Source of the DNA: Chitinophaga pinensis
GTDB taxonomy: Bacteria; Bacteroidota; Bacteroidia; 2-12-FULL-35-15
Length of the DNA: 60,028 bases
NCBI GenBank assembly: GCA_945865315.1
Contig: CAMBDK010000004.1
Location: forward strand, 1 to 60,028
Direction of reading: 5' to 3'
Part shown: positions 654 through 9,774 of the stretch, piece by piece
How positions within the stretch are numbered: the stretch's first letter is position 1
Layout of the letters: each line of letters begins with the position of its first letter
Position numbers and translations under genes: made by a program
The notes under the pieces: generated by a model
The model's database searches: none
Seen by the model: only the letters and a program-made list of their open reading frames with translations
Told to the model about the DNA's origin: nothing

Positions 654-1964
654 ATGAAACTTAATAATAAAGTGATAATATCTAATTTCATCGAAGCTCT
701 TGGCTGCGCTTGCGTTATCCCTCCTCCCCCCATTTTTTTTATAAGCAGTAACTTTAATAAAGCCTTTTCGCAAACAATTTTATTTGTTTTCGTATCATTT
801 TTTCTTTTATTGCTGTTGCCAACATTCTCTTTTGCTCAATTCGAGGTCATTAACAAGGGAAGTCTTATTACTAATACCAATGTTGCTTTTGCTATCAAAG
901 GCAATGTTATCCATCAGGATAATGGTACTATTGCCAATACCGGTAATTTTTATATTACCGGTGATTTGATAAATGACAACCCTGCGGGTAATGTATTTAC
1001 AGCTGGAACCAATGGCTGGGTATATTTAGATGGAGCCACGCAAACTATTAGTGGCAATACGATCACCCATTTCAATAACCTTGAATTATTGGGTACAGGA
1101 ATAAAACAACTCAATAATATAGATGCTGAAATAGAAGACACCCTTGCTCTCAACGACCGTGAATTTGCAACTGCTGATAATACGTTGTTTGTTATTAATA
1201 CTGGAACAGGTATTGTTACACGAACAGGCGGTTTTGTAAGTAGCACCAATGATGGAGGCCTTTCACGCAATACACTTGCCGCAAACACTTATTTTTTTCC
1301 GGTTGGTTCAAGCACAGGAACTACGCGTTTTCGTCCTGTTGATATTACTCCCGATGATGCTTTCGCTAATACCTTCAAGGTACGAATGGCAAATACGGAT
1401 GCATCTATCGAAAGCTTTGATCGTTCCTTAAAAGAAAGTACCATTGGAGAAATAAATTCGAATTTCTATCATAAAATAAACCGTACTAATGGTAATTCAC
1501 CAGCAGATATAACATTATACTACGATAATAGTTCTGATGGCTATTGCGAGATAATGACAGCTTGGCAAAACACAGCTCAATGGAAAAATTTAGGACTTGT
1601 TACAACAGCTAACAATTATGGATTAAGCGGGCTTACAAAACAAACTGTTACTGATTTTTCTACTATACCCTTTGCCTTGGCAGAAGTAATACCTGCCATT
1701 TTAATTGCCAATGTGTTTAGTCCCAATAATAACGGAACCAACGATGTACTGCATGTATTAGGAAAAGGAATTGATCAAATGCAGTTTATCATTTTTGACC
1801 GCTGGGGTGAAAAAGTTTTTGAAACCACAGATATTAACACAGGGTGGGACGGGACCTATAAAGGAAAACCAATGAATGTAGGGGTATTTGTATATTTCAT
1901 TAAAGGGAAATTTAAAAACGGAGATAAAATTGATAAAAAAGGAAATATTACGCTACTGAGGTAA
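654..1964 (+). CDS. T9SS type-B sorting domain (gliding motility-associated C-terminal, CHU_C) secreted protein
   Basis: C-terminus ANVFSPNNNGTND...IFDRWGEKVF...GWDGTYKG...GNITLLR is the type-B CTD. Hydrophobic signal ends FSFAQ. ATG 654 preferred over TTG 585. Confidence 0.85.
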   Translation: MKLNNKVIISNFIEALGCACVIPPPPIFFISSNFNKAFSQTILFVFVSFFLLLLLPTFSFAQFEVINKGSLITNTNVAFAIKGNVIHQDNGTIANTGNFYITGDLINDNPAGNVFTAGTNGWVYLDGATQTISGNTITHFNNLELLGTGIKQLNNIDAEIEDTLALNDREFATADNTLFVINTGTGIVTRTGGFVSSTNDGGLSRNTLAANTYFFPVGSSTGTTRFRPVDITPDDAFANTFKVRMANTDASIESFDRSLKESTIGEINSNFYHKINRTNGNSPADITLYYDNSSDGYCEIMTAWQNTAQWKNLGLVTTANNYGLSGLTKQTVTDFSTIPFALAEVIPAILIANVFSPNNNGTNDVLHVLGKGIDQMQFIIFDRWGEKVFETTDINTGWDGTYKGKPMNVGVFVYFIKGKFKNGDKIDKKGNITLLR

Positions 1965-2021
1965 ATAGCTTTGAGTATTGCCATGTGAGGCACAAGAATT
2001 AAAAACTAAGAGAGAAGAACC

Positions 2022-5706: not shown

Positions 5707-8700
5707 ATGAAAAAAAGTGAAAACAGTTTTACAATTGGCAATTGGCAATTGGCAAAAATAAAAAAAAGCTTGGCAAATAGCGTATTACAAATTGCCTGTT
5801 GCCTATTGCCAATTTTTTCTTTTGCACAAAACAACGTAGGTATGGGTACAATAAACCCCGACCCTTCTGCTGTGCTTGATTTACAGGCCACCGACAAAGG
5901 GTTTTTAGTTCCCCGCCTGCCTGATACCGCAGGTATTACATCACCTGTCAGCGGTTTATTAATTTACCGTATCCCTGATAATACATTTTATTATTTTAAA
6001 GGAACGTATTGGAAAGCCATCATAGCGGGAGTAGAGATTAATGGTTCAATTGGTTCAATTGGTAGCACTGGATTAACGGGAAGCACTGGATCAACGGGGA
6101 GCACAGGATTAACTGGTAGCACTGGGACAACGGGCAGCACTGGGTCAACGGGCAGCACTGGATTAACTGGCAGCACCGGCTCAATAGGCAGTATTGGGGC
6201 AACAGGAACCACTGGCACAACAGGTTCAACGGGTTCAACCGGATTAATATCTAATGGAACTGCTATTGGTAACACCACTTATTGGGATGGTGGGGTATGG
6301 GTATTAAATAACAACAACATTTATAATGCAGGCGCCTCCGTTGGGATAGGTACTGCCGCAACGCCTGCCGTTTCGGCCAAATTAGAGTTAAGTTCCACCA
6401 CACAAGGTACTTTAATAACACGTATGACTACTGTTCAGCGCGATGCAATTGTTTCACCCGTGGAATCGCTTCTTATTTTTAATACTACAACTAAATGTTT
6501 TGAAGCGTGGAATCAAGGTACCGCAGCATGGGTAGCAATTGGTTGTGTCAATTGTACTTCACCCGGCCCTTTCTCAACTTCTGCTGCAACAAACATGATA
6601 GGATCCTCATTTGACGCAAACTGGACCATATCTTCCCTTGCTACCGCTTACTTTTTGGATGTGGCTACTGATATAGGATTTTTCTCAATTGTAGCAGGCT
6701 ATAGTAACCTTAATGTAGGCAATGTATTAAGCTATGGTGTATCGGGTCTAACCTGTGGTACTTATTACTACCGCATAAGGGCAACTAATGCTTGTGGTTC
6801 AACAGCCAATTTAGTTACAAATACAGTTACTACTATTCCGCCGTCACAGCCAAGTATAATTACTGGAAATACAGCTCTTTGTAAGGGGGATACTGCTGTA
6901 GCTTATTCAGTAAGCAATGTTGTTGGTGTAACTTATACCTGGACATATTCCGGCCTTGGTTATACGCAGGCTTTGGGAGGTACTACTAATTCCATTACCG
7001 CTAATTTTTCCGCTGCAGCTACTTCGGGAACACTTACTGTTATACCAAGTAATGCTTGTGGTATTGGAACAGCCCAAACACTTGCTATTAACTTAAGCGA
7101 TAGCCCTACCACAGCCAATGCAGGTGCCGATATAACGGGTTGTGACACTAGCACAGCCACATTGTCTGGAAACATTGCATCGGTTGGTACAGGTTCCTGG
7201 TCCGTAGTTTCTGGTGCAGCTACTATAACTGCAGCTAATTCTCCTACCTCAGGCATAACAGGTTTAAGCATACCAGGTACTGCCACTTTACGATGGACCA
7301 TATCCAATTCTCCATGTGTTGCTTCTTCCGATGAGGTAGTAATTTCTATAATTGCAAGCCCTACCGCCGCCGCCGCATCAACTACACCTACGCTTTGTAT
7401 AAGTACTGTTTTAACAAATATAACTCACGCTACTACCGGAGCAACAGGTATTGGTGCTGCAACAGGTTTACCTGCTGGTGTTACTGCTGCTTGGGCATCC
7501 AATGTTATTACTATTAGTGGTACGCCTACGGCTTCGGGAACATTTAATTATACGATACCTTTAACTGGTGGTTGTGGAACAGTGAACGCAACAGGTACGA
7601 TTACGGTTACTCCTGCAAATACTGCAGCAGCAGCTTCTTCTACACCTACGCTTTGTATCAGTACCGTTTTAACTAATATAACTCACGCTACTACCGGAGC
7701 AACAGGTATTGGAGCTGCAACAGGTTTGCCTGCTGGTGTTACTGCTACTTGGGCATCTAATACCATAACTATGAGTGGTACGCCTTCGGCTTCGGGAACA
7801 TATAATTATACGATACCTTTAACAGGAGGCTGTGGAGCGGTTAACGCAACAGGTACTATTACGGTTACTCCTGCGAATACAGCAGCAGCAGCATCAACGA
7901 CACCTACGCTTTGTATCAGTACCGTTTTAACTAATATAACTCACGCTACTACCGGAGCAACAGGTATTGGTTCTGCAACAGGTTTACCTGCTGGTGTAAC
8001 AGCTGCTTGGGCATCCAATACCATAACTATTAGCGGTACGCCTACGGCTTCGGGAATATTTAGTTATTCGATTCCTTTAATAGGTGGTTGTGGTTCAGTG
8101 AACGCAACAGGTACGATTACGGTTACTCCTGCAAATACTGCAGCAGCAGCTTCTTCTACACCTACACTTTGTATCAGTACCGTTTTAACTAATATCACTC
8201 ACGCTACTACCGGAGCAACAGGTATTGGTGCTGCAACAGGTTTACCTGCTGGTGTAACAGCTGCTTGGGCATCTAATGTTATCACTATTATTGGTACTCC
8301 TACGGCTTCGGGAACATTTAATTATACGATACCTTTAACAGGAGGCTGTGGAACGGTTAACGCAACAGGTACGATTACGGTTACTCCTGCGAATACAGCA
8401 GCAGCAGCATCAGCGACACCTACGCTTTGTATCAGTACTGTTTTAACTAATATAACTCACGCTACTACCGGAGCAACGGGAATTGGTGCTGCAACAGGTT
8501 TGCCTGCTGGTGTTACTGCTACTTGGGCATCCAATACCATAACTATTAGTGGTACTCCTACGGCTTCGGGAACATTTACTTATTCCATTCCTTTAACAGG
8601 TGGTTGTGGTTCAGTGAACGCAACAGGTACTATTACTGTAATTGCTACTCCTACCAACGCCGCCGCCGGTGCCGACCAATTAATTTGTGCTACTACCGCT

Positions 8701-9774
8701 ACCCTTGCAGGTAATACAGCCACAGTAGGAGCGGGATCATGGACGCTTGTTTCAGGAGCCGGAACAATCACTACTTCAAGTTCTCCTACCTCTGGTATAA
8801 CAGGTTTGGGAGTGGGTGCAAATGTATTCCGTTGGACCATTAGCAATGCACCATGTACAGCAACATCTGATGATATTACCATCACCAGAAGCGATAACCC
8901 TACAGCAGCCAATGCAGGTGCAGATATAAATCCGGCGTGTGATGTAACCACTGCAACTTTATCAGCAAATACCCCCACAGTAGGTACAGGAGCATGGTCA
9001 GTAATTTCCGGCACAGCCACCGTAACTAGTACATCTTCTCCATCTTCGGGTGTAACTGGCTTAGCCGTGCCTGGTACAGCCACCTTGCGCTGGACAATAT
9101 CTAATGCACCTTGCACCGCTTCAACGGATGAGGTGATAATTACTACTATTGCTTGTTGTCCTTCTACTATAGCAATCACTCATTTAATTGGTTCAGTAGC
9201 CCCTGAAAGTAAATCGGTAACTTATGGTGTTGTAACATCAAGTCTTTCAGGTGCCAGTAAGTGTTGGATAACTCAAAATTTAGGTGCAACTATCCAGGCG
9301 ATTTCGGTAACTGATAACACCGATGCCGCTGCAGGCTGGTATTGGCAGTTTAACCGCAAGCAGGGATATAAAGCCCTTGGGATAACAACTGGATCGACAC
9401 CAACTCCGACTTTTAGTACAGCATCAATATCTGAAAACAGCGACTGGCTTGCAGCAAACGATCCTTGTACCATAGAGCTTGGCGCCGGTTGGCGCATCCC
9501 TACCTACACGGAGTGGTTTAATGCAGATGGTAATGGGGCGTGGGCTAATCGCAGTGATGCTTATAATTCAGTGCTAAAAATACATGCCGCAGGGAATATT
9601 GATAATATTACTGGTAATTTAAATAACCGCGCAATATTAGGCTTATACTTTAGCAGTACGACTAAAAATAGCACAACGGGGGGGCATTCCTATTGTAATG
9701 GTGCCCCCACAAGTCAAATGGACACATTTGTTACTAAGAACTACGGGTTCTCGCTACGTTGCCTCAGAGACTAG
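5707..9774 (+). CDS. Large secreted fibre/adhesin-like protein: GIGT modules, collagen stalk, FN3, PKD/Ig-like repeats, C-terminal FISUMP (Fib_succ_major, CLec-like) domain
   Basis: ATG 5707 (in frame with ORF 5644). 23 G-X-Y triplets at 6043-6249; FN3-like [12 protein letters not shown]; five 86-aa repeats; tip motifs [34 protein letters not shown]. Confidence 0.85.
7360..8643 (+). repeat. Five tandem 258-bp (86-aa) intragenic repeats, Ig-like GLPAGVT...ISGTPT domains
   Basis: Anchor CTTTGT recurs at 7393, 7651, 7909, 8167 and 8425 (exact 258-bp spacing); units are near-identical. Confidence 0.95.

Follow-up and report, generated by a model that had tools for sequence, protein, structure and literature searches.

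Type IX secretion system (T9SS) cargo proteins whose C-terminal domain (CTD) is of type B need cognate PorP/SprF-like shuttles and remain bound to them (PMC9143113, PMC12618676). According to the same two sources, five to six operons of this kind, with PorE homologues, occur in Flavobacterium johnsoniae, and the CTD of its cargo Fjoh_3952 forms static foci, which were read as wall anchoring. We analysed a 60,028-nucleotide stretch of Chitinophaga pinensis DNA (assembly GCA_945865315.1, contig CAMBDK010000004.1, positions 1 to 60,028; hereafter the window), in which five genes at 654-9774, here called g1 to g5, join a type-B cargo triad to two genes for collagen-stalked proteins that lack a T9SS CTD. 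The reading that we favour, with confidence slightly better than even, is that these genes encode a two-part surface fibre. The g1 protein would serve as a socket holding the trimeric, CTD-less g4 and g5 fibres, and the pairing of their genes recurs in many Bacteroidota.

The Fjoh_3952/Fjoh_3951/Fjoh_3950 genes of F. johnsoniae encode a type-B cargo, an SprF-like shuttle and a PorE homologue, the same triad in the same order as in the window. The cargo needs its cognate shuttle, and wall anchoring via the PorE homologue has been proposed (PMC12618676, PMC9143113). The window would add a CTD-less fibre partner, whereas none is described for that triad in the available portion of PMC12618676, where the word collagen occurs in a reference title only and Fjoh_3953 goes unmentioned. 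In Porphyromonas gingivalis, the type-B CTD of PG1035 is bound to PorP and PorP to the peptidoglycan-binding PorE (PMC9143113, PMC12618676). Unlike this PorE, g3 lacks the tetratricopeptide repeat (TPR) part and scores below the equivalog cut-off, and no fibre partner of PG1035 is known from the available portions of these sources. SprB and SprF resemble g1 and g2 in that a cargo with a type-B CTD adjoins its cognate PorP/SprF gene. However, SprB is a single giant mobile polypeptide without a PorE-like neighbour (available portion of PMC9143113), whereas the filament of the window would be a separate trimeric protein. Autotransporter and two-partner adhesins share with g1 a beta-helix passenger, but they carry a translocator barrel or a two-partner secretion (TPS) domain, whereas g1 gave no Pfam match to either and its C-terminus is a T9SS CTD.

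The type-B triad is already known. What is new is the separate CTD-less trimeric fibre, the pairing of its gene across Bacteroidota with one particular cargo passenger, and a specific model of the joint. The first-pass annotation knew of no characterisation of such a module. Our literature search found none either in main texts (supplements aside), nor anything on collagen-like or PTL_trimer proteins (the family of the g4 and g5 modules, see below) in connection with T9SS.

The cargo triad and the two fibre proteins

Five open reading frames (ORFs), all on the + strand and placed as in the first-pass annotation, fill 654-9774. The first, g1 (654..1964), is the type-B cargo and proposed socket. 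A type-B CTD was defined as a C-terminal domain of about 85 residues above the curated cut-offs, and that of g1 scores 58.4 bits with CHU_C (PF13585, cut-off 27) and 54.5 bits with TIGR04131 (cut-off 35). Its first ~345 residues match no family in Pfam and TIGR profile searches. The signal peptide would run to 836 and the mature protein begin at Q62 (837); the start codon is uncertain, as taking 654 leaves 39 residues before the hydrophobic core. An AlphaFold2 model of mature g1, made from an alignment of 28 sequences (pLDDT 91.7, pTM 0.82), comprises a right-handed beta-helix that begins right at the mature N-terminus (residues 1 to ~125; 837-1211), a beta-sandwich (residues ~126-285; 1212-1691) and the type-B CTD (last 90 residues; 1692-1961).

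In VIA comparisons, model residues 1 to ~180 matched 4om9 (Z 11.1, root-mean-square deviation (rmsd) 4.4 over 203 residues), 4wa0 (Z 10.8) and 4q1q (Z 10.2), all of them adhesin or autotransporter passengers; Z values of this size speak for a shared fold only. For the last 90 residues, the likeness is to solved T9SS CTDs (8glk_D, rmsd 1.9 over 72 residues, Z 8.8). Foldseek with the g1 model gave no match at E<=0.001, and a single-sequence scan of genome contigs found no relative. An opening motif, Q-x(1-4)-[VF]-x-N-x-G, is common to g1-type proteins of distant lineages, and N6, G8 and G22 hardly vary within the family.

The cognate PorP/SprF-like gene g2 (2022..3119, +), predicted to encode the outer-membrane shuttle and anchor for g1, lies 57 bp downstream. 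It scores 114.1 bits with PorP_SprF and 166.6 bits with TIGR03519 (cut-off 90.55; model positions 2-290 of 292), and members of its family adjoin g1-type genes in most related loci. The product of g3 (3133..4680, +) combines a propeller of three PD40 repeats, a CarboxypepD_reg-like domain (a weak match, 18.7 bits against a cut-off of 32.3) and a peptidoglycan-binding OmpA_C domain (OmpA, 72.6 bits). With the PorE model NF052230 it scores 250.6 bits, under the cut-off of 600, and the match begins at model position 144, the TPR part being absent; g3 is therefore called PorE-like, not an equivalog. Overall, these matches agree with the earlier description of the first three genes as a T9SS type-B module.

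The 269-aa protein of g4 (4880..5689, +) has a signal peptide (4880-4963), a GIGT module (4964-5167), a (G-S-T)n collagen run at about 5198-5375 (TRF array 5225-5375) and a second module (5474-5671). The long fibre g5 (5704..9774, +; 1356 aa counted from 5704) begins likewise, with a signal peptide, a module at 5827-6030, collagen at 6060-6224 (TRF array) and a module at 6337-6546. There follow a PKD_6 domain (6838-7089), 4.9 tandem 86-aa repeats (7375-8636), a PKD-like domain (8665-8886) and a divergent FISUMP-like tip at about 9442-9771. Both signal peptides end in S-F-A before a Q, the two modules of each protein (~70 aa) flank the collagen run, and Collagen (PF01391, cut-off 27.2) is matched with 39.8 bits in g4 and 34.2 bits in g5. 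No CHU_C, Por_Secre_tail, autotransporter or barrel domain was found in either protein, even at E<=10 on pieces. These results bear out the first-pass account of these proteins as having a Sec signal, GIGT modules and a collagen stalk, with no T9SS CTD or barrel. The ligand-binding FISUMP/CLec end ascribed to g5 was not confirmed as written. The tip stays below the cut-off of FISUMP (PF09603, 12.1 bits against 33.9, E 0.23) and reaches E 0.14 with TIGR02145. A pairwise BLASTP match to the FISUMP-annotated P0109 (E 4e-5 over 128 aa) shares the motifs GW.IP...EW and GFS.RCLRD. We also observed that g4 shares 76% identity with the opening ~300 aa of g5 and ends after the second module. This 'headless' copy of the g5 start may act as a spacer or compete for the socket, or it may be a duplicate in decay.

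Through annotated relatives, the GIGT module is assigned to Pfam PF26696, which is present in most of the listed g4 relatives and in the nearest Atlas clusters (score 0.93), and which the Atlas names 'PTL_trimer, phage tail like trimerisation region'. Such relatives usually add Collagen and end variably, in C1q, Collar, Peptidase_S74, FISUMP or Lcl_C; no T9SS CTD occurs among the 120 g4 relatives listed. Searching with a profile built from 22 modules gave 62,177 cluster representatives (E<=0.001), of which 39,586 passed E<=1e-10; single proteins hold as many as 18 copies. Of 130 distinct complete ORFs, 128 have their first module no more than 75 residues (median 30) from the start of the ORF. 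Because the module directly follows an A-x-A-like site, the mature fibre is expected to begin with Q-N-N-V/M-G-I-G-T or a close variant. Modelled alone, the module gave a pLDDT of 77.5 with an uncertain N-terminal half. Its fold matches, to collagen XV/XVIII trimerisation domains and tailspike necks, are insignificant (Z<=4) and provide no fold evidence.

In two sets of GIGT proteins that neighbour g1-type genes (16 and 19 scanned), neither CHU_C nor Por_Secre_tail was found in any. Their ends are Peptidase_S74, glycine-rich, PKD_6, DUF7151, FISUMP or without known domain, and the neighbour in locus L224 has a bona fide FISUMP end (E 3.6e-23). The only fusion of the module to a CTD that we saw is a 200-aa ORF (L094:2028-2630) made of a signal peptide, half a GIGT module and a CHU_C CTD.

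Pairing of cargo and fibre genes

The genome to which the window belongs (195 contigs) holds 11 GIGT ORFs and three g1-PorP-PorE triads, and GIGT genes follow two of these triads. On contig C6, a 4145-aa GIGT protein and a further GIGT ORF come after the triad, in this order; this region (C6:3-22812) is a second copy of the whole system and adjoins an unrelated type-B cargo/PorP/PorE-like triad. Three of the 66 CHU_C ORFs of the genome lie within 6 kb of a GIGT ORF, namely two of the five g1-family genes and one of the 61 others.

Among 68 genomes of the taxonomic order, g1 relatives were found in 50 and GIGT modules in 60, tallies that include the unpublished G023. All 39 places outside genome G000 that match g1 with E<1e-50 were taken, as 38 loci. 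The closest relatives (E<1e-68) account for 24 loci, five of them cut by contig ends. Of the 19 evaluable loci, 16 have one to five GIGT genes immediately behind the PorE-like gene, and all 19 have one within 4 kb; in the three remaining loci the GIGT gene lies directly after g1 (L060), directly before it (L073) or three ORFs downstream (L052). A third subfamily, of ~600 aa and about one gene per genome, has an adjoining GIGT gene in 4 of 20 loci and one within ±8 kb in three more. Module matches number 6-36 in genomes with the closest g1 type and 0-14 in the others. The gene arrangement is far beyond chance, with the locus counts within the order not being independent because the genomes are kin.

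Two variants stood out in these loci. In L166 (G046:C66:10500-30499), the genes run GIGT-g1-GIGT-g1-GIGT (576, 609, 591, 614 and 601 aa), the g1-like ones being of the ~610-aa CHU_C type, as if fibre and socket had been duplicated as a pair. In a sister subfamily (L075-L088, e.g. L085:1456-16380) and on contig C80 of the own genome, a 396-aa PorE-like protein is followed by PD40/OmpA-like proteins of 1100-2900 aa; these g1-PorP triads look like a different dedicated module on the same scaffold.

Pattern scans used the narrower alignments A2 and A5, A1 and A4 being too diverse. A scan of genome contigs anchored on GIGT returned 63 loci, and the 14 that follow a triad or g1 all come from metagenome-assembled genomes (MAGs) of the same group, overlapping the order genomes. 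In other lineages, a g1-type domain with a type-A CTD stands beside GIGT genes in L124, L135 (from a record titled Kapaibacterium) and L136 (a Flavobacteriales MAG). In an even sample of 401 Bacteroidota genomes, the g1 passenger (g1N) was matched in 35, GIGT in 82 and both in 20. SprA is present in 312 of the 401 and in the window's genome; it occurs in all 82 GIGT-positive genomes, and none of the 89 genomes lacking SprA has GIGT.

Outside the order, 18 g1N places were taken from 13 of the 19 other genomes with both domains and from G310, which has g1N only. The arrangement GIGT, g1, PorP, PorE-like recurs in other families (L172, L174), and GIGT directly precedes g1 in L175, L182, L173 and L177, the last of these beside a 4076-aa g1N protein of another class. 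In L176, g1N, a 374-aa ORF and GIGT stand in a row; in L178, a GIGT ORF lies 8 kb from the g1N ORF. Seven places (L179, L180, L181, L183, L184, L186, L188) have a g1N ORF and no GIGT in the region taken, and in L185, L187 and L189 the models recovered neither ORF.

A metagenome scan anchored on the g1 passenger domain, and blind to GIGT, gave 65 loci of 35-98% identity from varied habitats. One of them, L206, is essentially the window's own organism, and L245/L246 and L257/L259 are near-duplicates. Of the 65 loci, 22 have a GIGT gene no more than 1.5 kb away from the g1(/PorP/PorE) block. Among loci with 2 kb or more of flanking sequence, the proportion is 20 of 41 if one flank suffices and 11 of 12 if both are required, with gaps of 1-78 bp. 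Gene order varies by lineage; PorP is mostly present and the PorE-like gene often absent. Overall, the neighbourhood survey that the first-pass annotation had asked for shows linkage of g1-type cargo and GIGT/collagen genes kept in several families and in metagenomes. As for the make-up of the proposed module, its core of g1 and fibre, usually with PorP, is conserved, but the PorE-like gene proved to be only optional.

A predicted joint between cargo and fibre

A complex of g1 (residues 1-288) with three N-terminal GIGT modules was modelled using our own alignments. The three fibre copies gave ipSAE values of 0.91, 0.91 and 0.90, as compared to 0.00 for each of three controls, with 95-101 contacts, a partner pLDDT of 93-94 and agreement between runs on at least 98% of the contacts. 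The interface proposed by the first-pass annotation between g1 and the trimer of GIGT N-termini is thus predicted. The mark of the ipSAE tool is reached by 116 of 157 solved complexes and by 2 of 215 mismatched pairs, a calibration that holds only roughly here, since we supplied the alignments ourselves and the calibration set has a different stoichiometry.

The predicted interface involves g1 residues 2-22, 25, 27-28, 33, 39 and 41 and residues 1-11 of each fibre copy. The docking surface would thus lie on the first beta-helix rung, at mature residues 2-41 (840..959, +). The copies are placed on g1 residues 4-7, 11-13 and 15-21, which are the first three helix strands, so that the N-terminal strands of the three fibre copies would add one rung across its three faces. 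The modelled joint fits the strict N-terminal position of the fibre motif, its being the best conserved in the module and its disorder in the monomer; the predicted interface maps to the best-conserved motifs of both partners. The complex model supports binding of the fibre by g1. Together, synteny and predicted interface lend in silico support to the earlier idea of g1 as a base or adaptor carrying a trimeric fibre.

Several observations weigh against a dedicated socket. The most serious is that, in most genomes, the bulk of the GIGT genes stand without a g1-type neighbour, and often no g1-type gene is detectable there at all. Only 14 of the 63 GIGT-anchored loci follow a triad, and many others stand beside housekeeping genes such as those for Nuo subunits, glycerol kinase, DnaX or TruB. 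In the 401-genome sample, g1N goes unmatched (E<=1e-6) in 62 of the 82 GIGT-positive genomes, and GIGT is missing from 15 of the 35 that are g1N-positive; 16 GIGT loci taken from 14 genomes with no match to g1N showed a weak g1N-like neighbour once (L199). The own-genome triad on contig C46 has no GIGT gene after it, and in 12 loci of the sister subfamily (E 1e-56 to 1e-66), giant PD40/OmpA proteins come after the triad instead of GIGT genes. The correlation with SprA rests essentially on one SprA-less family, which accounts for 87 of the 89 genomes. As to the complex, the controls were unrelated proteins, not other beta-helices. Because the module is a general repeat, GIGT strands may stack on any triangular beta-helix end, and they might do so on others since they may natively form a triangular rung. 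Stand-alone fibres would either be served by other cap-bearing cargos or take another route, with g1 being one partner.

Part of this evidence would also suit an account in which g1 is an ordinary static type-B adhesin, the GIGT fibres are separate surface or released proteins that leave by another route, and adjacency marks a co-regulated 'adhesin island'. The many GIGT genes that stand alone, the 62 genomes without detectable g1N and the occurrence of other T9SS cargo genes near GIGT genes (L089, L129, L141) point in this direction. However, the pairing is specific to the g1 passenger whatever the CTD type, survives changes of gene order across families at gaps of 1-78 bp, and in the own genome concerns one of 61 other CHU_C genes as compared to two of five of the g1 family; moreover, the predicted interface lies on the best-conserved motifs of both partners. 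We consider co-regulation alone unlikely.

The same predicted complex would be expected if g1 bound the fibre N-termini for another purpose, as a cap or assembly factor that nucleates or ends trimer folding, or by extracellular docking after separate export, for example through an unrecognised T9SS signal. The name of PTL_trimer as a trimerisation region, and the weak likeness (Z 3-4) to collagen XV/XVIII trimerisation domains and tailspike necks, are consistent with such roles. They seem distinctly improbable, given that no export signal was found in the 35 scanned neighbours, g4 or g5, and that g1 has a full CTD and a cognate PorP, as in a displayed protein and not in a chaperone.

Proposed fibre export, chromosomal setting and implications

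In the favoured two-part fibre, g1 would be exported by T9SS through its type-B CTD, as established for triads of other species. It would stay on its cognate PorP/SprF-like barrel g2, which g3 would tie to peptidoglycan by analogy with such triads elsewhere. The g1 passenger would form a short three-sided beta-helix, its free N-terminal end being the socket. The g4 and g5 proteins, probably along with the genome's remaining GIGT proteins, would reach the periplasm by Sec, be cut to expose QNNVGIGT and trimerise by their PTL_trimer modules and collagen; in the model, the three N-terminal strands of the trimer sit one per face on the first rung of g1. From the envelope outwards, the order would be PorE-like protein, PorP, g1 CTD, sandwich, helix, fibre stalk and variable tip. 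As the fibres have no CTD, the most economical exit would be assembly in the periplasm followed by export as a 1:3 complex on the g1 CTD. Such piggy-back export of the fibres through T9SS is purely conjectural, and we infer surface display via PorP/PorE and an adhesive role of the variable tips.

The Sec signals, the lack of an outer-membrane export signal and the PorE-like genes that adjoin in the window's order would also be compatible with fibres that stay in the periplasm or on the inner face of the outer membrane, as an envelope structure with the PD40/OmpA protein. However, the tips are of ligand-binding or tail-fibre types (C1q, Collar, Peptidase_S74, FISUMP, Lcl_C), the proteins attain 4783 aa or more (in an ORF truncated at the edge of its locus; 4145 aa in the longest complete one), and the PorE-like gene is often missing from g1-GIGT pairs. 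A periplasmic location is unlikely, and we give this envelope structure very little credence.

At the left, the unit is likely bounded by a terminator-like hairpin at 344..371 (+), a consensus match with a 12-bp stem followed by a T run. A scan for sigma-70 promoters was uninformative (41 sites versus 35.7 expected). Of the sampled words, 27% at most were present in 17 metatranscriptome runs from lake water. Between g5 and the next cluster lies a 1.3-kb AT-rich gap (9775-11087, ~30% G+C, no ORF of 80 aa or more). That cluster, at 11088-16975 (DUF4856, imelysin (Peptidase_M75), vitamin-K carboxylase-like HTTM and TonB-dependent receptor genes), has the look of iron uptake. Two ORFs of 424 and 477 aa without Pfam match (21825-24529) stand upstream of a glycosyltransferase/Wzy/aminotransferase cluster (24726-30032). 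A further CHU_C type-B cargo of 811 aa with a P_proprotein domain, at 44746-47181, is an 'orphan' with no PorP/SprF gene beside it. Elsewhere, the window carries ordinary chromosomal genes, among them those for RNase Y, Pol I, YidC and TatC and a glycosyltransferase cluster of LPS type.

This setting bears on the idea that the genes are remnants of phage or contractile-injection-system tail fibres, which the Peptidase_S74 and Collar domains and the 'phage tail like' name of the family might suggest. Such an origin, from a prophage or an extracellular contractile injection system, was rejected and is given next to no weight: 128 of 130 ORFs have signal-peptide-like N-termini, chromosomal housekeeping genes flank the copies, and the window has no phage genes.

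Phage tail fibres on baseplate adaptors and the BclA exosporium filaments of Bacillus have a trimeric (collagen) stalk, a conserved N-terminal attachment end and exchangeable C-terminal tips. The GIGT proteins are alike, several of them carrying the Peptidase_S74 chaperone; unlike those fibres, they are cellular and Sec-exported, and the acceptor proposed for them, a three-sided beta-helix, is monomeric and comes by way of T9SS. In Tat 'hitchhiker' co-export, for example of PaoABC, a signal-less subunit travels on a signal-bearing partner, though across a different membrane and by a different machine. No case of T9SS hitchhiking was found in our literature search, which included the available portion of PMC9251779.

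To serve as sockets for separate trimeric fibres is a concrete, testable job proposed here for small, statically anchored type-B cargos. The joint itself would be a 3:1 symmetry mismatch, three strands capping a three-sided beta-helix, and the fibres are a first candidate for signal-less 'hitchhiker' export by T9SS. Flavobacteria amenable to genetics also carry this gene pair. More tentatively, as a possibility that we hold with less than even confidence, T9SS may export hetero-oligomers, trimeric PTL_trimer fibres riding a monomeric CTD-bearing adaptor with one N-terminus per face. If so, one socket family could display exchangeable fibres with different tips, and the surface route of a large signal-less class of Bacteroidota fibres, of which PTL_trimer has 62,177 cluster representatives, would be explained. 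With g1 as socket, a huge uncharacterised domain family would gain a partner and a likely location.

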